IMG/VR virus record: IMGVR_UViG_3300047297_000301
Coordinates: 1-64,000 of that record
DNA length: 64,000 nt
Strand: one strand, 5' to 3'
From: a virus
Made by a program: the position numbers and the translations under genes. The notes under the pieces were generated by a model. The model worked only from the letters and a program-made list of their open reading frames with translations. It ran no database searches and was not told the DNA's origin. Positions 38,181 to 47,713 of the stretch are shown piece after piece (within the stretch, counting starts at the first letter, position 1; each line of letters opens with the position of its first letter).

Positions 38181-38717
38181 ATGACTACATTAAAAGAGTT
38201 AACTCATGAAATTCATGAACAAGCAGAATTCCATCCATTTACTAAACTAGTTTTATCAAAAAATATTACTAATCAGATATACGGGGATTTTTTATATAAT
38301 CAGCACGCAGTATACCATACACTGGAAACAGTAGCTGGTATACGTGGATTATTAACAGACTTGCCAGGATTATGTCGAGCTGACTTAATACGTGAAGATT
38401 TAGACGACCTAAGTATAACAACCGTCAAACTATATACTAGCACTCACAAGTATACTCACTATGTGGCATGCAATCTAACAGATGATCAATTACTAGCGCA
38501 CCTATACGTACGACATATGGGCGATATGTATGGCGGTCAAATGATTAAAAAATGTGTTCCTGGCAATGGCCGTATGTATAAGTTTGAAAATCGCAAAGAA
38601 TTAATTCAAGCTTTGCGAAACAAATTAGATACCTCAATGGCTTCTGAAGCCATTCATTGTTTTGGTTATGCTATTCAACTATTTACAGAGTTAGCCAATG
38701 AGCACAATATTCAGTAA
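38181..38717 (+). CDS. hemO: Heme oxygenase (biliverdin-producing)
   Basis: LKELT...HEQAE (proximal His) and AHLYVRHMGDMYGGQMI signature. Confidence 0.92.
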   Translation: MTTLKELTHEIHEQAEFHPFTKLVLSKNITNQIYGDFLYNQHAVYHTLETVAGIRGLLTDLPGLCRADLIREDLDDLSITTVKLYTSTHKYTHYVACNLTDDQLLAHLYVRHMGDMYGGQMIKKCVPGNGRMYKFENRKELIQALRNKLDTSMASEAIHCFGYAIQLFTELANEHNIQ

Positions 38718-39384
38718 ACTAAAAGCTCATGCAGCGGAATTGGAAACAATTCTTGCTGCACGAGCTTTTCCTTTGCCAACAGAGTACGATTCTGGTTGGT
38801 ACACTAAGAATTTTTCTAGTGCTTGGATCCGACGTGGTAACTTAGATGTTATTGACGTGTCAGAATCCAAAAAACTTTATATGATGCACTTGTGTATATT
38901 CCCGCACGTTTACGATGCAGCCCCTATTTACGGCTTTGACATTGTAGCAGGAACAAATAAAATCACAGGAGCGTTTTTAGATTTTTCACCTACAGGCGAC
39001 CCTGAGCACCCAATGTGCAAATGGTTTCAAGAGTTTGTAGAACCTACTTCGTGGGCAAAACCACGAGAGCTGCCTGAATGGGCACGAAATATATTTTCAA
39101 ACCGCATGGTTGCAGCAGGTAATATTAATACTGATTTTGAACTTGCAGTTATACTAGAGATTTCAAAGAAGTCGTTAATTTACTACTTGGACAGTATATC
39201 AAAATATCGTCCAGCACTAAAATACGAAGATATGGTAGCACAACATAATTTTACTGAAAAGCAAAATTATTACTGTCAGCAACAAAAATGTAACCCACAT
39301 ACTCCACGAGTATTGAAAACACTAGGATTTAACGATGATCAAGTACATGAGTACATACATAAAGAACTATTTCCTGAAGTATGA
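38698..39384 (+). CDS. pcyX: Ferredoxin-dependent bilin reductase, PcyX/PcyA-like
   Basis: MMHLCIFP, PIYGFDIVAG, AFLDFSP, RELPEWARNIFS, QNYYCQQQKCNPHT; overlaps the heme oxygenase gene. Confidence 0.85.
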   Translation: MSTIFSKLKAHAAELETILAARAFPLPTEYDSGWYTKNFSSAWIRRGNLDVIDVSESKKLYMMHLCIFPHVYDAAPIYGFDIVAGTNKITGAFLDFSPTGDPEHPMCKWFQEFVEPTSWAKPRELPEWARNIFSNRMVAAGNINTDFELAVILEISKKSLIYYLDSISKYRPALKYEDMVAQHNFTEKQNYYCQQQKCNPHTPRVLKTLGFNDDQVHEYIHKELFPEV

Positions 39385-39430
39385 ACAACAATGGATAGAT
39401 TATTGGTATCATTACGGAGGACCTAAATAA
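39335..39430 (+). CDS. Putative 31-aa Tyr/Trp-rich peptide
   Basis: MIKYMSTYIKNYFLKYEQQWIDYWYHYGGPK; AGGA SD; its TAA overlaps the ATG of 39430. Confidence 0.35.
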   Translation: MIKYMSTYIKNYFLKYEQQWIDYWYHYGGPK

Positions 39431-39846
39431 TGTGGATACTACAATTTTTACCCAACTGGATATTTTACTTAGCATTAATAGCAGGCATAGCCGCCCTTTT
39501 AATCACACATTTTGTTAAAGTATTACCTAACGCGCAGTTAATTAAATTAGCAAGCGTTGCAGTAGTTTTGTTTAGCATTTTTATGATAGGTGCTATATCA
39601 AATAATGATGCTTGGCTAGCCAAAATCAAAGACTTAGAAGTTAAGGTTGCACAAGCAGAAGCTAAGTCAGCTGCAACAAATACTGATATTGTAGAAAAAA
39701 CTGTTGTAAAAACGCAAATTGTTAAACAACGTGGTCAAGACATTGTTAAGTATGTAGACCGCGAAGTTGTTAAGTATGACACAACTTGTGTTATTCCCAA
39801 AGAATTTGTACTTGTACACAACCGTGCAGCAGAGGCACCAAAATGA
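39430..39846 (+). CDS. i-spanin (Rz-like) membrane protein
   Basis: N-terminal TM helices, coiled coil, C.IP.EFV..HN.AA end; precedes a lipoprotein. Confidence 0.7.
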   Translation: MWILQFLPNWIFYLALIAGIAALLITHFVKVLPNAQLIKLASVAVVLFSIFMIGAISNNDAWLAKIKDLEVKVAQAEAKSAATNTDIVEKTVVKTQIVKQRGQDIVKYVDREVVKYDTTCVIPKEFVLVHNRAAEAPK

Positions 39847-40106
39847 AATTGTTAATATTATCATTAGTTTTGTTACTTAGTGCCTGCACAACTGTTCCAG
39901 TGGTCGCAAAGTTTCCACAAGCACCAGGTGCACTAGTACAAGAGCCTTGCCCTAACTTGCAAAAACTGCAAGACGAAGCCAAATTATCAGATGTTGCAAA
40001 AATTGTAACGGTTAATTATACCGAATACTATATGTGCGCTGTGAAATTAGAAGCCTGGCAGCGTTGGTATCGTGAACAAAAAACCATTTATGAAAGCGTG
40101 AAGTAA
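39843..40106 (+). CDS. o-spanin (Rz1-like) lipoprotein
   Basis: Lipobox MKLLILSLVLLLSA-C; Pro-rich; NY.EYY.C. Confidence 0.75.
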   Translation: MKLLILSLVLLLSACTTVPVVAKFPQAPGALVQEPCPNLQKLQDEAKLSDVAKIVTVNYTEYYMCAVKLEAWQRWYREQKTIYESVK

Positions 40107-40720
40107 TGGAATTAACACTTGCTCAACTAAAACAAATTGTTGATAAAAATCCACATATAGAGTACTGGCATCGTGCATTAGTACAACTATTACCAGAATA
40201 CGAAATTAACACTCCACAACGCATGGCAGCTTTTTTAGCGCAATGCGCACACGAGTCAGGCGGGTTTCGTGCAATCAAAGAAAACTTAAACTATCGTGCA
40301 GTTACGCTCAGGAAGATTTTTGGCAAATACTTTCCCACTGATGAAATGGCTCAACAATATGCAAACAAACCAGAAAAAATTGCTAACTTAGTTTATGCTA
40401 ATAGGATGGGTAATGGCGGACCTGAAACAGGCGATGGCTATCGTTATTCGGGTCGTGGACTGATTCAGCTAACTGGCAAAGACAATTACTTTTGGTTTGC
40501 CGCTTCAATAAACTTAACAGCTGAAGCTGCTAGTGAATATATGGAAACCTTTGAAGGTGCAGCACAATCGGCGTGCTGGTTCTGGGAAACAAACAACTTA
40601 AATCAGTGGGCAGATAAAGACGATATCTTAACACTAACTAAACGTATCAATGGCGGTACTATTGGCCTAGAAGATCGTATAAAACATTATGAACATGCCA
40701 AGCATGTACTAGGAGCCTAA
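40106..40720 (+). CDS. Endolysin, glycoside hydrolase family 19
   Basis: AAFLAQCAHESGGF, ENLNY, YANRMGNG, GRGLIQLTGKDNY, TKRINGG..GLEDR. Confidence 0.93.
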   Translation: MELTLAQLKQIVDKNPHIEYWHRALVQLLPEYEINTPQRMAAFLAQCAHESGGFRAIKENLNYRAVTLRKIFGKYFPTDEMAQQYANKPEKIANLVYANRMGNGGPETGDGYRYSGRGLIQLTGKDNYFWFAASINLTAEAASEYMETFEGAAQSACWFWETNNLNQWADKDDILTLTKRINGGTIGLEDRIKHYEHAKHVLGA

Positions 40721-40723
40721 GCG

Positions 40724-40861
40724 GTGCTTGCCGCTTGGTTAGTTTCATTAACATTAAGTTATGCCAAACCTGAAGAATATGAATGTGTTAGGTGGGCATG
40801 GACTGGAGACGTATATAATCGAAAAGTAATTTGTTTAGAATGGCGTAAAAAACGCCGATAG
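40724..40861 (+). CDS. 45-aa putative exported peptide with two Cys
   Basis: AGGAG SD, GTG start; VLAAWLVSLTLSYAKPEEYECVRWAWTGDVYNRKVICLEWRKKRR. Confidence 0.65.
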   Translation: MLAAWLVSLTLSYAKPEEYECVRWAWTGDVYNRKVICLEWRKKRR

Positions 40862-40870
40862 GGGGTAAGT

Positions 40871-41368
40871 ATGATAGATCCAATGACCGCACTAGCGGGG
40901 ATACAAACGGCCATTTCTATGGTTAAAAAAGCCAGCGCAGTTGCTAACGATTTAGGGTCGTTAGCACCAATGATTGGCAAAATGTTTGATGCTAAAAGCA
41001 CGGCAACTAAAGCTTTAATGGAAGCAAAGAAGTCTGGCAAAGGCAACAACATGGGCACTGCCTTACAAATTGAGATGGCCCTAGAACAAGCCAGAGCATT
41101 TGAAGAAGAACTAAAAATGTTGTTTATGCAAACAGGCAAAATTGATGTTTGGAACAAGATTAAAGCACGTCAGGCTGAAATGGATGCCAATGATGCTAAT
41201 GAACTAAGACTTTTTAATGCTCAAGAACGAGCACGTAAACAAAAAGAAGAAGAATTAAACGAATGGGCTATGATACTTGGTGGAGCTGCTTTTGTTTTAT
41301 TTATAATGTTTATTGGCGGATACGAACTAATGCAATACTGCCAAACAGGTAATAGGTGTGGCCGATGA
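40871..41368 (+). CDS. Membrane protein in lysis cluster (holin candidate)
   Basis: Amphipathic N-terminus, coiled coil, C-terminal TM helix. Confidence 0.65.
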   Translation: MIDPMTALAGIQTAISMVKKASAVANDLGSLAPMIGKMFDAKSTATKALMEAKKSGKGNNMGTALQIEMALEQARAFEEELKMLFMQTGKIDVWNKIKARQAEMDANDANELRLFNAQERARKQKEEELNEWAMILGGAAFVLFIMFIGGYELMQYCQTGNRCGR

Positions 41369-41514
41369 ATGAGTACCAAAAAACAGCGGATTTGTGTTTT
41401 AAAATATTCACTTACGGATGTGTAGCACTTTATGCTTTAGGGTTTTTAAAATTTTTACCAGACGATCTATCAGATAAAATTGTTAATTTATTATTAGGAA
41501 AAATAGGGCTATAA
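41365..41514 (+). CDS. 49-aa membrane protein
   Basis: AGGTG SD, ATGA overlap; MNEYQKTADLCFKIFTYGCVALYALGFLKFLPDDLSDKIVNLLLGKIGL. Confidence 0.65.
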   Translation: MNEYQKTADLCFKIFTYGCVALYALGFLKFLPDDLSDKIVNLLLGKIGL

Positions 41515-41820
41515 ATGCACAATGATTTAAAACTATTTAAATGGGCAATACTTTTGTTATCAATACCTTTAGCTTTAGCATTTTTTGGTAAAGACAGCTA
41601 TCGCTACCCATGTCAAGACCCTGCAAACTGGGAAAAAGATTACTGTAAAGTACCTATCTGTGACGTTAACAGAACTTGCCCAGAGCATATTTTCAAAGGC
41701 CAACGCGATCCAAGACTAGGACCTCCCAAAGATGGACAAACTCAAACAACTAATCAGTCATTTGCAGCAACAACTGCGTGCACACCTCAGCAAACACAAG
41801 GAGCTACCCGTGGAAAGTAA
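41515..41820 (+). CDS. Membrane-anchored 4-Cys periplasmic protein
   Basis: TM helix then YRYPCQDPANW...C..P.C.....CP. Confidence 0.7.
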   Translation: MHNDLKLFKWAILLLSIPLALAFFGKDSYRYPCQDPANWEKDYCKVPICDVNRTCPEHIFKGQRDPRLGPPKDGQTQTTNQSFAATTACTPQQTQGATRGK

Positions 41821-42268
41821 CCCAATTATTTATACTGAAGATCAGCTAATGGCGCGCCTAAAATTCTTTATTGGGATTTGTTTGGCCCTTACATTAACTG
41901 GCATTGTGTTTGTAGTTTTGTACTCCATTATTTTTATTACTCAACCGCTAAACGCTATTAGCCCGATTGACCAAAAGTTCTTTGAGATGATTATTCCTAT
42001 TGCTACCTTTTTAACAGGTACATTATCAGGAATTATGTTAGCAGGTGGTAGCAAAGAAGAAATGGAAATGAAACGTGACATGATTAAACAAGCGCAAGAA
42101 AATTCAAATACTTATGCTAAAGCTAATCCTGTAAAGATTGAACCAACCTTTTCGCCAGGATTCTCAACAACTGCAGGGTTTAATGGAACTAGTGCTGCTC
42201 CTGTTACTAATATTACTTATATTAACGGAAAGCCCGCTCCACAACAAGCACCACATCCAGAGATTTAA
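41810..42268 (+). CDS. Two-TM membrane protein
   Basis: AAGGAG SD before GTG 41810; two hydrophobic helices; IATFLTGTLSGIML. Confidence 0.7.
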   Translation: MESNPIIYTEDQLMARLKFFIGICLALTLTGIVFVVLYSIIFITQPLNAISPIDQKFFEMIIPIATFLTGTLSGIMLAGGSKEEMEMKRDMIKQAQENSNTYAKANPVKIEPTFSPGFSTTAGFNGTSAAPVTNITYINGKPAPQQAPHPEI

Positions 42269-42487
42269 ATGGATAACGTAAAAATTATGTTATCAGAAGA
42301 CTCAGCCGTTAGTAGTAAACGAGTAATTACTTTTTTAGCTTTTTTACTATGTGCTGGTGCTTTTATAGCTATGATACTTGGTTATCCCATAGACGCAAAA
42401 CTATTTGATTCTATGATGTTTATTGTAATTGCAGGATTAGGATTTACAGCAAGCGAAAAGTTTGCATCAACTAAGGAAAAGAAATGA
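42269..42487 (+). CDS. Small two-TM protein (holin-like)
   Basis: SSKRVITFLAF...IVIAGLGFTASEKF...KEKK. Confidence 0.6.
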   Translation: MDNVKIMLSEDSAVSSKRVITFLAFLLCAGAFIAMILGYPIDAKLFDSMMFIVIAGLGFTASEKFASTKEKK

Positions 42488-42699
42488 AAAAATTTATTGT
42501 AGCTGTTATTGCTAGTTTCGCACTTGTGTCAGCATTAGCTTGCGAAGCCGCAGAAACCAAAAAAGTCTGTAAAGAAAAAACAGATAAAGCTGGAAAGCCT
42601 GTACTAGACAAAGCAGGCAAACCTCAAGAAGAATGCAAAACTATTAAAGTACACCAAAAACTTGAAGGTACTAAAGTTGAAGACGCTAAGAAGAAGTAA
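42484..42699 (+). CDS. Secreted Lys-rich small protein with Cys pair
   Basis: Signal peptide MKKFIVAVIASFALVSALA; KKVC...ECKTIKVH.KLEGTKV. Confidence 0.7.
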   Translation: MKKFIVAVIASFALVSALACEAAETKKVCKEKTDKAGKPVLDKAGKPQEECKTIKVHQKLEGTKVEDAKKK

Positions 42700-44201: not shown

Positions 44202-44239
44202 AAAAAAGCCCCTATAGAGCAATCTATAGGGGCTTTTTT
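44202..44239. terminator. Bidirectional terminator, copy 1 (left boundary of island)
   Basis: AAAAAAGCCCCTATAG-AGCAAT-CTATAGGGGCTTTTTT between convergent genes. Confidence 0.92.
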
Positions 44240-44676
44240 CATTCTTGCAATGTCGAGTATAATTTCCAACCGTGTTCACGGTGTTCTTCTATACGTTCAC
44301 TTAAAAATGCACATAAGTCTGGCATTTTATACATTTCAGCTAATTGATATGCTGTTAGTAGTGTTTCATGTACTTTGACGTTATCTATATACAATGTGCG
44401 TACCATCTCTTTTGGAGGAAGAATTTCTAGTGTATCTTGTATATCGGACATTTCTTTTAAGTGTTGAAAACTTGCATGCACATAAATGTTTTGACCACGT
44501 AAAGTTTCAGCAAAGTCGTCTAACTCGTCTTGAACTTCGTCGTATATATCTCCAAACAACTTATGGTACTGTACAAAGTTAACACCAGTTACATTCCAGT
44601 GAAAGTTTTCTGCTTTTACTAAAAACGCATAGGTTGTTGCAAAAGCCCGTTTAAGGGCCATGTGTAGTTCTTCCAT
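44239..44676 (-). CDS. dps: Dps (mini-ferritin)
   Basis: KAENFHWNVTG..F.QYHKLFGDIYDE....DDFAE; HREHGWKL. Confidence 0.92.
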   Translation of the reverse strand: MEELHMALKRAFATTYAFLVKAENFHWNVTGVNFVQYHKLFGDIYDEVQDELDDFAETLRGQNIYVHASFQHLKEMSDIQDTLEILPPKEMVRTLYIDNVKVHETLLTAYQLAEMYKMPDLCAFLSERIEEHREHGWKLYSTLQE

Positions 44677-45080
44677 TATACAACATTCCAGTTAGTGCCG
44701 CTAAATATTAGTGTAACTGCACCATCTGTTGCGGCTAAAACGGTATAGCTTGCTGCATTTTCAACAGTTTCTGCTCCGTTTGGAGTAATTGTAAAATCAC
44801 TGGTTTGACCAGCTTCTGATTTTACTACTACTACACGACCTTCTGTGCCTGCTGTTAATAATATACTAATTGCAGCACCTGTGCCAACTACTCCAAGATA
44901 GTAGTTAGGTGTTGCGCCAGCGCTATCAAGAGTATAAGGACTTGCTGCATTGTTTACTAATTTAGTGTTAACTGTGCCGTTGCCAACAACAGAAATAACG
45001 CCGTTGGTTACGTTTACACCGCTTCCAACTTTAACTACACCATAGTTGGTGGTTGAACTTAAGGGGCTATTAAATGCCAT
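44676..45080 (-). CDS. Fibre-like protein (shared N-motif + WNVV-ending beta domain)
   Basis: AAGGA SD; N-terminus shared with 45644, C-domain shared with 46135. Confidence 0.75.
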   Translation of the reverse strand: MAFNSPLSSTTNYGVVKVGSGVNVTNGVISVVGNGTVNTKLVNNAASPYTLDSAGATPNYYLGVVGTGAAISILLTAGTEGRVVVVKSEAGQTSDFTITPNGAETVENAASYTVLAATDGAVTLIFSGTNWNVV

Positions 45081-45092
45081 GATTTTTCCTTT

Positions 45093-45644
45093 TTAACTAA
45101 TTCTAGTCATTGTAACTTTTAAACTACTGCCTGTGGGTCGCGTAGGCGTAACTCCAGCAGGTAGTGCACTGAGATTTACTGTTGTGTCTGCACTAGACCA
45201 ACAAAACTGTAGATCGCTGTTAGCAGCCATTGGCAGAGTAAAGTTGCCGCTGGTAAATATTATTGAAAGTGTGTTTATTAACTCTAAGTCTTGTCGTGAG
45301 CCAGGTACGTCAACACCATTATATCGCAACCAAATACTCATTGAGCTAGTACCTCCACTGGTTTTTGCCATTGTGGTAGTAAATAGCACTGTGTACACAC
45401 CAGCATTGGTTACTCGCAAAATGTCACTACCTATTAGTGTAACACCATTGTTAGGCCCTGCAGTGCTAAATGTACCTATGTTAACTTGATTTGCAACTGG
45501 ATTGGTTTGTGTTCCGTTGCTGTAGAATCCGTAATTTAACAGACCACTTCCTGCACTAACTACTCCATCTGTAACACTTAAGCCACCTCCAACTTTCATT
45601 ACTCCATAGTCTGCGGTAGAGGCTAGGGGTTGATTATAACTCAT
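45093..45644 (-). CDS. BclA-C/C1q-like beta-sandwich protein
   Basis: ATGA overlap start (MSYNQPL); RVTNAGVYTVLF...IWLRYNGVDVPGS pattern. Confidence 0.65.
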   Translation of the reverse strand: MSYNQPLASTADYGVMKVGGGLSVTDGVVSAGSGLLNYGFYSNGTQTNPVANQVNIGTFSTAGPNNGVTLIGSDILRVTNAGVYTVLFTTTMAKTSGGTSSMSIWLRYNGVDVPGSRQDLELINTLSIIFTSGNFTLPMAANSDLQFCWSSADTTVNLSALPAGVTPTRPTGSSLKVTMTRIS

Positions 45645-46135
45645 ACTACATTCCATTCTATGCCGTTATAGATTAGGCTAATTGAGCCCCAGTCTGTGTT
45701 TAGTAGGTAGTTTGGTTGTGAGTCAATTGTTGACCCAGTAGTTACCACAGTAATCGGATTCGTGTTAGCGTCTCCAACAGCATCCTTGATAACATAAACT
45801 TTGCCCACAGTACCCGCAGGTAAAGTAATCGTAACTGAGCCATCATAAATAACACCTAAAAAATATTCTGTTGTTGTTGCCGCATAAGCAGTTTCATCTA
45901 TTAATGTAACAGGTACGTCCGCTAGGCTACCTGGCTCACCTTGTGGTCCTTGTGGACCAGGTGGACCTGGTGGACCAGGTGGACCTGGTGGACCTATAAC
46001 ATTACTGTTTATAACTAGGTCAAGATCGTCGAATTTAGGAGGACAAAAAGGTACTATAGGAGCAGGTAATATTGGTGGTATAAATCCAACCATAGGCCAA
46101 CCAAAAGGCATACTCTGCTTTTGTCGTTGATCCAT
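45641..46135 (-). CDS. Collagen-like protein
   Basis: AAGGA SD; Pro-rich N-terminus; (GPP)4-GPQ-GPQ-GEP; C-terminal TITLPAG..GKVYVIKD...WNVV domain. Confidence 0.8.
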   Translation of the reverse strand: MDQRQKQSMPFGWPMVGFIPPILPAPIVPFCPPKFDDLDLVINSNVIGPPGPPGPPGPPGPQGPQGEPGSLADVPVTLIDETAYAATTTEYFLGVIYDGSVTITLPAGTVGKVYVIKDAVGDANTNPITVVTTGSTIDSQPNYLLNTDWGSISLIYNGIEWNVV

Positions 46136-46148
46136 ATTTATTCCTTAT

Positions 46149-46181
46149 AAAAAAGCCCCACAACTTGTGGCTGCGGGGCTT
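46149..46181 (-). terminator. Intrinsic terminator inside island operon
   Basis: Minus strand AAGCCCCGCAG-CCACAAG-TTGTGGGGCTTTTTT. Confidence 0.75.
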
Positions 46182-46198
46182 GTTAAACACATTAAATA

Positions 46199-47116
46199 TT
46201 AACGGATGCTAGTATTTGTGTTAGTTGGGTTAGCAGTCAATGTGCCGCTTCCAACATTAATTGCACCATTTGTGATGTTTTGGCCTAATCCATAGATTAA
46301 GTTTGCCAAGTGTGCATACTGAGCTTGTTGTTGTGATTGTTGTTGCATTTGATTGATGTTATTGGTATTTGTAAGAGTAATACCGCTAGTAGCACTATCT
46401 AAAGCTGCACGATTTTTTAGTGCAATAATTTCTGCATTTGCATCGCCAAGTTGACGATTTAATGTAGCTTCGTATTGTGCAACAATTAAAGCACGAGTCT
46501 TTTCACCATCAGCTGCAATGTCTTTGCTTAACTCATAGCGATTTTCCATGATGTTTTGGTTAATTGCAGCTTGCCCTTGCATTAAGGAAACTGCATTTTG
46601 GTTAACCACATCTTTTAAACCACTAATGTTATTTGTAAGCGAACTAGCTACACTTGCTAATTGGGTTGTAATGCCCAATGATTGTGTAGCTTGTGATGCT
46701 TCAAATGCTGCTGTTGAAACAGCAACTGACTTATCAACAGCACCAATTGCTGCCATTAAACTCATATTAGCTTGAGTTTGTTCTGGAGGACTACGAAGAA
46801 CTGCACCTGCTGCTGCACCGCCACCATCTCCGCCTAAAAGGTTACCGTTGTTGCGAAGCAAACTTCCCAAGATCAATCCACCGATTAAACCGCCACCGCC
46901 ACCGCCGCCAAATAACCCATCACCACCGCTACCGCCGCCCATAATCATACCTGGAGTCATAATTTCTGCCATGTTTTTATCCTTTAGTTTTGTAATCTCA
47001 CCCATAACTTTTGAATAGTAGTTATTAGCTTGATCAATTTTAGTTTGAAGCGCACTCATATCATATCCAACGTTATTTGTTGAATTTAATTCTGGTACGC
47101 CAGTTTCATCCGCCAT
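46199..47116 (-). CDS. Gly-rich hydrophobic segment + long coiled-coil protein; in-frame starts at 47116 (305 aa) and 46972 (257 aa)
   Basis: AAAGGA SD before both ATGs; GLFGGGGGGGLIGGLILGSLL; Ala/Gln/Asn-rich heptads. Confidence 0.8.
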   Translation of the reverse strand: MADETGVPELNSTNNVGYDMSALQTKIDQANNYYSKVMGEITKLKDKNMAEIMTPGMIMGGGSGGDGLFGGGGGGGLIGGLILGSLLRNNGNLLGGDGGGAAAGAVLRSPPEQTQANMSLMAAIGAVDKSVAVSTAAFEASQATQSLGITTQLASVASSLTNNISGLKDVVNQNAVSLMQGQAAINQNIMENRYELSKDIAADGEKTRALIVAQYEATLNRQLGDANAEIIALKNRAALDSATSGITLTNTNNINQMQQQSQQQAQYAHLANLIYGLGQNITNGAINVGSGTLTANPTNTNTSIR

Positions 47117-47187
47117 AGAAATTCCTTTTAGAGCAGAAATGATACTGCGTATCACGCGCAGTTACCAAAACCTTGGCAACTGCAGTA

Positions 47188-47271
47188 ATTATAACATGAT
47201 TGATATATGAGAGCAACCTTAATTTTCTGGCTACAGGAGTAGAAATGCAAGTTACTAAGAAATTATGTTCC
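47188..47271 (-). promoter_or_regulatory. 84-bp promoter cassette, copy 1 (TTGCTC-N17-TATAAT + conserved upstream region)
   Basis: 73/84 identical to 47588-47671, no indels. Confidence 0.8.
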
Positions 47272-47299
47272 GCTAACAACAATCCACTAAACCAAAAAA

Positions 47300-47554
47300 T
47301 CAATATAGCTCTTTTTTACTACGTTGTTTTGATTGCATATACTCTGATACACTAACCAGCATTGACTTAGTTACAGCAATTTTTTCTTGTACCCATTCAG
47401 GCACATTGTCTTTGTCGTTGATTACCTCATCTATATTTTCTATAGCACGTCTCATGGTTCTTAGATTACTTTCAACCATAGTAGCTTCATCATTGTATTC
47501 TTTACTATTACTATAAGGCGTTTCATTGTACTTATATACCCAGTATGTTCTCAT
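47300..47554 (-). CDS. Small helical hypothetical protein
   Basis: AAAGGA SD; NVPEWVQEKI motif; flanked by the two promoter cassettes. Confidence 0.75.
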   Translation of the reverse strand: MRTYWVYKYNETPYSNSKEYNDEATMVESNLRTMRRAIENIDEVINDKDNVPEWVQEKIAVTKSMLVSVSEYMQSKQRSKKELY

Positions 47555-47587
47555 AATTTATTCCTTTAAAGTTTATTAACCGTAAGT

Positions 47588-47671
47588 ATTATAACATGAT
47601 TGATATGTCACAACAACCTTAATTTTCTGGTTACAGGAGTCAAAATGCACGTTACTATAAAATTCTGTTCC
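47588..47671 (-). promoter_or_regulatory. 84-bp promoter cassette, copy 2 (TTGTTG-N17-TATAAT + conserved upstream region)
   Basis: Direct repeat of 47188-47271 at an offset of exactly 400 bp. Confidence 0.8.
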
Positions 47672-47676
47672 AAAAG

Positions 47677-47713
47677 AAAAAGCCCCTATAGAGCAATCTA
47701 TAGGGGCTTTTTT
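47677..47713. terminator. Bidirectional-type terminator, copy 2 (right boundary of island)
   Basis: 37/37 identical to 44203-44239, same orientation. Confidence 0.92.

Follow-up and report, generated by a model that had tools for sequence, protein, structure and literature searches.

A conserved dual-start, glycine-zipper rod protein of an uncultured T5-like freshwater phage as a possible accessory fibre shaft

Here, we analysed one gene in the first 64 kb (positions 1 to 64,000; hereafter the window) of a 99,690-bp virus record, IMG/VR IMGVR_UViG_3300047297_000301, which has direct terminal repeats and is estimated to be complete. The gene lies on the minus strand at 46199-47116, and its product of 305 amino acids (aa) is termed P0001. 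Comparative evidence strongly supports the production of two isoforms, of 305 aa and 257 aa, and the part common to both is predicted to combine a glycine zipper with a long helical rod and a conserved C-terminal tail. Tentatively, and with somewhat less than even confidence, we read P0001 as the shaft of an accessory virion fibre or whisker. A preliminary description of the gene, made from the letters alone, had proposed a protein laid out like a class I viral fusion protein. The open reading frame (ORF) itself proved to be real, with more than 2,000 homologues and its own promoter and terminator, and the likeness to fusion proteins was not upheld.

Two in-frame starts in one transcription unit

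The preliminary description had noted two ATGs, each behind an AAAGGA Shine-Dalgarno (SD) sequence, and had predicted one isoform from each. Both ATGs, at 47116 and 46972, were confirmed, with the SD sequences at spacings of 6 and 7 nt, respectively. The elements involved, with confidence of predicted structure given as the predicted local distance difference test (pLDDT), are the following.

46199-47116, minus strand: ORF of the long isoform, P0001, 305 aa, including the stop codon (ORF call and homologues)
46199-46972, minus strand: ORF of the short isoform, 257 aa from the invariant Met49; 27 related loci start there
46973-47116, minus strand: N-terminal extension, residues 1-48, in the long form only, with a predicted helix at residues 20-52 (pLDDT 94-96) and a YYxK motif
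47123-47128, minus strand: SD sequence AAAGGA of the first start, conserved in related loci
46980-46985, minus strand: in-frame SD sequence AAAGGA of the internal start, over the codons for Leu-Lys-Asp, seen in long-form loci

The dual start was tested at the DNA level in 70 distinct loci, 43 of which have an extension of at least 25 codons. A strict SD pentamer was found 5 to 16 nt before the internal ATG in 42 of these 43 long-form loci, which are mutually related, so that this and similar counts do not represent independent events. As a control, only 6 of 308 other internal ATGs (1.9%), in 52 long ORFs of the window, had such a pentamer. In the one exception among the 43 loci, the script probably chose the wrong Met. 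The residues encoded over the internal SD vary (LKD, LKE, FKE, EKE, TRK, LGD, QGD, TEG and KGE) while the purine nucleotide motif stays, and this persistence through a changing codon context argues for selection on the nucleotides. Moreover, the Lys codon inside the internal SD is always AAG, a codon that accounts for just 25% of Lys codons in the window.

The protein alignments agree with this picture. Met49 is invariant in close homologues (alignment A1), and in a diverse alignment of 82 members a Met occupies that column in almost every protein with a long N terminus, while proteins without the extension begin there. The same layout was seen in gp38 of Iodobacter phage phiPLPE (Met62, AAAGGA) and in a homologue on the high-GC viral contig L150 (Met45, AAGAGG). 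Across the family, the extension ranges from 0 to ~125 aa in length, and its ratio of nonsynonymous to synonymous polymorphism (pN/pS) is 0.06-0.55 in close pairs. Short-only relatives of the same phage lineage carry the promoter, the leader hairpin and an SD sequence directly before the ATG equivalent to Met49, so that the short form is a functional unit complete in itself, with the extension as an accessory; the role of cap or inhibitor proposed earlier for the long form is putative. In these loci, an apparent upstream ORF resembling the extension proved to be translated promoter and leader. Overall, the near-constant internal SD, the varying codons over it and the short-only relatives strongly support the two predicted isoforms.

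The gene is flanked by the following signals.

47188-47216, minus strand: predicted promoter of P0001, with the -35 element TTGCTC (47216-47211), a 17-nt spacer and the extended -10 element TGTTATAAT (47196-47188)
47144-47180, minus strand: two predicted leader hairpins, the first of which is kept in relatives
46153-46181, minus strand: intrinsic terminator, a 12-bp stem followed by a T run, directly 3' of the P0001 stop codon

The promoter forms the 3' end of a conserved block of ~85 nt, made of the extended -10 element, the weak -35 element and a conserved upstream part. Exactly two copies of this block were found in the window, compared with none expected by chance; they lie 400 nt apart on the minus strand (47188-47271 and 47588-47671), and the second precedes an 84-aa gene at 47300-47554. 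Since copies of one promoter block drive both genes, the arrangement suggests joint regulation of the two, perhaps through an activator. The 5' leader of P0001 is ~65 nt long. Its first hairpin, GTTGCCAA / TTGGTAAC (47161-47180), has one G-U pair and stands at the very 5' end of the predicted mRNA; it also occurs in the related loci L023, L102 and L128, is kept even in relatives without the N-terminal extension and may serve as an mRNA-stabilising or regulatory stem. P0001 is thus a self-contained, monocistronic and moron-like transcription unit. The gene is covered by contigs that were assembled from freshwater metatranscriptomes (two runs, one study); such contigs cannot show starts, strand or level and were not used as evidence for expression or for either start, and stretches of the region that these runs leave uncovered carry no meaning.

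Glycine zipper, helical rod and likeness to fusion proteins

The principal parts of the protein are listed below.

46856-46915, minus strand: core of the glycine zipper, residues 68-87, the best-conserved segment of the family
46280-46780, minus strand: single long helix, residues 113-279, with hendecad periodicity (AlphaFold2, periodicity and three-copy model)
46571-46624, minus strand: 18-residue indel block, residues 165-182, holding the 'HR1-like' sequence LKDVVNQNAVSL (alignment)
46202-46369, minus strand: conserved Gln/Asn tail, residues 250-305 (family conservation)

A Gly-rich hydrophobic segment had been described previously, and we located it at residues ~59-106, with a GxxxGxxxG core at G76, G80 and G84 that sits in the short, glycine-rich sequence GLIGGLILGSLL. 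The membrane insertion or polymerisation proposed earlier is putative, and the hydrophobicity of the segment is marginal. The 19-residue Kyte-Doolittle maximum of P0001 is 1.38, below the customary threshold of 1.6. Across the family the median is 1.52, and only 24 of 82 members come up to that threshold. A rough translocon-scale sum was positive for all members. The zipper is probably too glycine-rich for a standard membrane helix and does not look like a textbook transmembrane helix; it could be a segment that inserts post-translationally or oligomerises, or a buried anchor. Residues 68-87 are the only hydrophobic stretch of the protein, and the reported absence of a signal peptide and of a C-terminal anchor was borne out.

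Behind the zipper, an AlphaFold2 monomer model built with 82 sequences predicts one unbroken helix at residues 113-279, with pLDDT >95 over residues 140-240, followed by a disordered tail. The model also places a helix at residues 20-52 of the extension (pLDDT ~95) and a short zipper helix at residues 77-88. The preliminary description had assigned ~130 aa of heptads to this region. The helix stands, but it is longer (~167 aa), and the periodicity of large hydrophobic residues across the family is 3.65 residues, that of a hendecad, rather than 3.5. The 18-residue indel corresponds to 7 + 11 residues, or five turns.

When three copies of residues 49-305 were modelled, a parallel in-register bundle was obtained, with ipSAE interface scores of 0.64, 0.65 and 0.63 in three runs, compared with 0.00 for the best control. 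The runs agreed in at least 58% of contacts, and the partner pLDDT was at least 69. Confident contacts span residues 113-218 and recur every 11 residues, with 185-185, 207-207 and 211-211 in register. This test was calibrated on two copies and the chain number was imposed; since coiled coils may reach good scores with differing numbers of chains, a trimer is no more than plausible. Of the trimeric coiled coil proposed earlier, then, the parallel in-register bundle is retained at the imposed chain number, and the heptad repeat is not. According to the model, the core would be a straight rod of ~25 nm. The rod carries the conserved motif DGxKTRAL at residues 203-210, inside the long helix. Charges are few in residues 113-305 (10 Lys/Arg and 12 Asp/Glu), where Ala, Gln, Asn, Ser and Thr abound. 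The Gln/Asn-rich tail was confirmed, with conservation past residue ~220; Gln stands at every second position (258, 260, 262 and 264) and the protein ends in ...INVGSG...ANPTNTN... Model confidence is low from residue 280, and the alternating Gln pattern suits beta structure better than a helix in this part, where the models are uncertain.

The class I proposal had relied on a resemblance of LKDVVNQNAVSL to heptad repeat 1 (HR1) of the coronavirus spike and of GLFG to the opening of the influenza HA2 fusion peptide. The position of LKDVVNQNAVSL (46583-46618) was correct, and it matches the spike segment, as quoted in the preliminary description, at 9 of 12 residues. However, this dodecamer falls inside the dispensable indel block, which is deleted in many homologues of 75-87% identity (e.g., P0021, P0024, P0031, P0036, P0089 and P0092) and so lacks a counterpart in close relatives. 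Searching the Protein Data Bank (PDB) with P0001 alone, or with a profile of close homologues, yielded no spike chain. With a profile of diverse homologues, coronavirus spike S2 HR1 chains ranked first, but only at E = 0.07-1, which is not significant, and no similarity to HR1 cores is thus detectable. GLFG is not conserved either, being replaced by GMF, GMG, GLL or LF in relatives.

The architecture also differs from that of coronavirus S2 and influenza HA2. P0001 resembles them in having a Gly-rich hydrophobic peptide beside a parallel, probably trimeric Ala/Gln/Asn helix. It has neither the hydrophobic N terminus nor the C-terminal hydrophobic segment of a type I membrane glycoprotein, and it shows no signal peptide, membrane anchor, second heptad region (HR2) or hairpin; in place of a trimer of hairpins, the monomer and three-copy models have one uninterrupted helix with all contacts parallel. 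Because of the position of the indel, the non-significant E-values, the variation of GLFG and the absent class I features, we consider the likeness to be compositional, and the caveat attached to the proposal, that it might reflect convergent coiled-coil chemistry, was right. The chance that P0001 is a true relative of class I fusion proteins, sharing ancestry with spike HR1 or HA2, is minute, and such common ancestry is effectively excluded.

Family and genomic neighbourhood

P0001 belongs to a large, uncharacterised family. A word-indexed search scored 8,000 candidates, of which 2,125, metagenomic proteins without a name, reached E <= 0.001. An exhaustive search gave 250 clusters at the 50% identity level, and for 111 of these E was 1e-10 or lower. 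Only two isolates in a set of 50,697 phage records carry a member: Acinetobacter phage At2 (XLQ30922, 'hypothetical protein') and the dwarf myovirus phiPLPE (gp38, 'putative tail-fiber protein'). Both are true homologues that have the zipper, the DGEKTRAL motif and the Gln tail in common with P0001, and gp38 has the N-terminal extension whereas the At2 homologue is short-only; neither has been characterised, and they are known by annotation label only. Pfam gave nothing for P0001 at E <= 0.01 and two unrelated sub-threshold matches at E <= 1, PHROGs and NCBIfam gave no family match, and none of 82 members matched the Pfam glycine-zipper families (e.g., the Gly-zipper 2TM type) at E <= 0.01. 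Some members match phrog_9288 and phrog_8119, both of unknown function. One member matched the type III secretion system (T3SS) translocon protein SctB2 at 2e-4, which was treated as compositional. The ESM Atlas gave unnamed viral clusters only, with no named match, and Foldseek of the P0001 monomer model against the PDB gave no match, as expected for a single helix. A megablast of 5 kb against phage records and a tblastn with P0180 also gave no match. A search for longer, fused forms of the family found none, which is weak evidence.

One homologue, 68% identical, lies on a 20-kb contig (L158, CAZKLA010000025.1) binned to a metagenome-assembled genome of the actinobacterial 'uncultured Aquiluna sp.' The binning was rejected as evidence of the host, as the phage has a two-component spanin and a GC content of 38%; the contig is probably that of a phage mis-binned by coverage or composition.

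The window encodes a major head protein, a phrog_3575 major tail protein, a tape measure of 1576 aa with a lambda-type C-terminal domain and a gpJ-like tip protein with an NlpC/P60 domain, as well as PhoH, a class II-type ribonucleotide reductase (RNR), an SbcC-like nuclease, heme oxygenase and bilin reductase. These genes mark the source, an uncultured freshwater virus, as a T5-like siphophage. Two loci in the window bear on the role of P0001.

45641-46135, minus strand: collagen-repeat protein with a C-terminal 90-aa adaptor fold like that of T4 gp10 and the CBA120 TSP4 XD domains (model and Foldseek)
39430-42699, plus strand: lysis cassette, with an i-spanin-like protein, an o-spanin, a weak GH19-like match and small membrane proteins

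Three small genes lie directly downstream of P0001. In the product of the first, 45641-46135, a 90-aa beta domain (model pLDDT ~96) stands behind a short collagen repeat. The beta domain matches the XD domains of CBA120 TSP4, the baseplate of Klebsiella phage KP1 and T4 gp9 and gp10 (Foldseek E = 5e-6 to 1e-3). This domain recurs in the product of 44676-45080 (minus strand). XD and gp10-type domains are adaptor modules that build branched fibre complexes, and these two genes look like an accessory module for a branched fibre, set apart from the main tail operon. The neighbours of P0001 have no signal peptides, which points to assembly in the cytoplasm. In 44 of the 63 loci, BLAST detects a knob or collagen gene after the P0001 homologue; diverged versions occur elsewhere (e.g., L011), and in one rearranged lineage the knob genes come before it instead. 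IMG/VR contigs L084, L087 and L091-L093, of one related lineage, hold a homologue with a ~125-aa N-terminal extension that is inverted relative to the RNR gene and has knob genes upstream on the same strand. This rearranged order indicates that the P0001 gene moves as a module of its own. A related-loci search with P0150 as query gave no relative.

Two further observations were made around the knob genes. The C-terminal tail of P0001 (46202-46285), AINVGSGTLTAN, resembles N-terminal motifs of the knob proteins encoded at 44676-45080 and 45093-45656, VVKVGSGVNVTN and VMKVGGGLSVTD; the motif may be a shared docking strand, but only 5 of 12 residues are identical, so that the resemblance is perhaps due to chance. 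In addition, a short terminator-like hairpin, GCTCTATAGGGGC, with a T run occurs on the minus strand at both 44208-44220 and 47682-47694, and these two identical hairpins bound an island (44203-47713) that holds the 84-aa gene, P0001, the knob genes and Dps.

In phiPLPE, gp38 lies in the head-tail module, beside a fibre gene and two virion proteins confirmed by mass spectrometry (MS); the GenBank record has MS-confirmed notes only for gp34, gp35 and gp63. The At2 homologue lies directly after tail-protein genes and two genes upstream of an endolysin and an Rz spanin.

In the window, the spanin pair of the lysis cassette spans 39430-40106. The i-spanin-like protein (138 aa) has two hydrophobic segments and a coiled coil, and the overlapping o-spanin has the lipobox LLSAC, MKLLILSLVLLLSAC. 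The cassette also contains the GH19-like match, which at E = 1.2e-3 falls short of the Pfam cut-off, together with several small proteins of the membrane or Cys-rich kind; among these, a 72-aa protein with two transmembrane (TM) segments is a holin candidate. The two-component spanin indicates that the host is probably Gram-negative. P0001 itself is not the phage's spanin, and no lipobox ORF like that accompanying Rz-type i-spanins was found within or beside its gene. Separately, the genes for heme oxygenase (Pfam E = 1e-15) and ferredoxin-dependent bilin reductase (E = 1.5e-18) adjoin at 38181-39384 (plus strand), between the tail assembly chaperone and the lysis cassette.

Possible roles of P0001

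If P0001 is a fibre shaft, it would be a late, separately transcribed fibrous protein of its T5-like freshwater phage. The 257-aa form from Met49 would supply the core, to which the 305-aa form adds an N-terminal helix. In the core, the glycine zipper would be followed by the ~167-residue helix, packed parallel and in register on an 11-residue repeat, and the rod would end in the conserved Gln ladder and Asn/Thr tail. The shaft would work with the adjacent small proteins bearing T4 gp10 / CBA120 TSP4-type adaptor domains, the zipper being its anchoring or contact end and the long isoform a modulator. We favour this reading because homologues repeatedly adjoin fibre or adaptor genes in three unrelated genome types, and because of the fibre-like composition, the parallel rod and the neighbours without signal peptides. 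Known trimeric fibres, such as the P22 tail needle gp26, T4 fibritin and reovirus sigma1, are likewise long parallel rods rich in Ala, Thr, Asn and Gln, with a conserved C-terminal part that is not helical, and are found beside fibre or adaptor genes; sigma1 also has a short hydrophobic N-terminal anchor before its coiled coil. The three-copy model of P0001, at its imposed stoichiometry, has the parallel in-register homo-oligomeric rod of such fibres. In contrast, they are mostly heptad-based whereas P0001 is hendecad-based, they have no sequence or Pfam match to P0001 and they lack a counterpart of its zipper segment and its conserved dual start.

Several points weigh against the fibre reading. 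The virion presence of P0001, as of any family member, is putative, and phiPLPE gp38 is without a 'confirmed by MS' note, though only three proteins of that phage have one. The best-conserved part is the hydrophobic zipper, which is kept across siphovirus and myovirus genomes and At2 (morphotype not determined), and a universal partner such as a membrane would fit this better than docking to a particular morphotype. The neighbours of the homologues in At2, phiPLPE and L150 have no sequence similarity to the adaptor proteins of the window, and phmmer and an X-domain hidden Markov model (HMM) found no shared partner among them. As P0001 has its own promoter and terminator, its linkage to the knob genes may be only positional. 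Finally, the best-known examples of conserved N-terminal dual starts are holins rather than fibres.

The main rival is a protein of the infected-cell membrane, a reading that we regard as possible but unlikely. The zipper would insert and oligomerise in the inner membrane, and the isoforms would behave as holin and antiholin do or serve some other timing or exclusion function, in which the 48-aa extension would block the insertion or topology of the short form. A dual start is a hallmark of lambda S105/S107-type holins, and a glycine zipper drives hole formation by the pinholin S21. P0001 resembles lambda S105/S107 and phage 21 S68/S71 as a phage gene with two in-frame starts, each with its own ribosome-binding site, upstream of a hydrophobic, Gly-containing segment, and its dual start is conserved; the effector and inhibitor roles of its forms are putative. 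Conservation across phages of different morphotype is highest in the zipper, the gene forms a monocistronic, moron-like unit, and in At2 no other TM-like protein lies between the homologue and the endolysin. However, the isoforms of those holins differ by 2-3 aa, not 48, and P0001 is 3-4 times larger, with a low-charge 25-nm rod and sub-threshold hydrophobicity both in itself and as a family median. A protein of 257-305 aa with a low-charge tail of ~190 residues is unlike holins. Moreover, the gene is not part of the lysis cassette either in the window, where a full cassette is 4-7 kb away on the other strand, or in phiPLPE, where the lysozyme and Rz are 16 kb from gp38; only in At2 is the homologue near an endolysin.

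A conduit for ejection across the envelope, proposed by analogy, is distinctly improbable. P0001 would be packaged or tail-associated, released at infection and anchored by its zipper, forming a multi-helix tube or rod of ~25 nm across the periplasm, comparable to the pilot protein H of phiX174 or to the T5 tape measure pb2 at its membrane-active end. In architecture, phiX174 H parallels P0001 in its Gly-rich hydrophobic N terminus and its long, parallel, Gln/Asn-lined helix of non-heptad, hendecad-type periodicity; the predicted rod length matches the width of the periplasm, and the two-component spanin points to a Gram-negative host. Nevertheless, phiX174 H is a decameric tube without detectable homology to P0001 (hhalign of A2, probability 0.3%, E = 0.22), this tailed double-stranded DNA phage already has its 1576-aa tape measure with a lambda-type C-terminal domain, and packaging of P0001 is putative. 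It would be a similarly long shot that P0001 acts as a harpoon, that is, a virion-borne rod whose C-terminal tail sits on gp10-like adaptors, with the zipper as a distal membrane-insertion peptide that the long isoform caps until host contact. Such a protein would be a convergent, class I-like membrane-engaging device in a tailed phage.

Members of the family abound in phages of freshwater, estuaries and wastewater, and none has been studied so far; the PHROG families that some of them match are themselves uncharacterised. Few phage genes other than holins show so clear a comparative signature of a conserved internal start as P0001, and its extension-less relatives are a ready-made natural experiment. 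If P0001 is a fibre, it would represent a new type of shaft for branched receptor-binding systems, and if its zipper is membrane-active, tailed phages would have a novel means of engaging the cell envelope. The cultured phages At2 and phiPLPE make either outcome directly testable.

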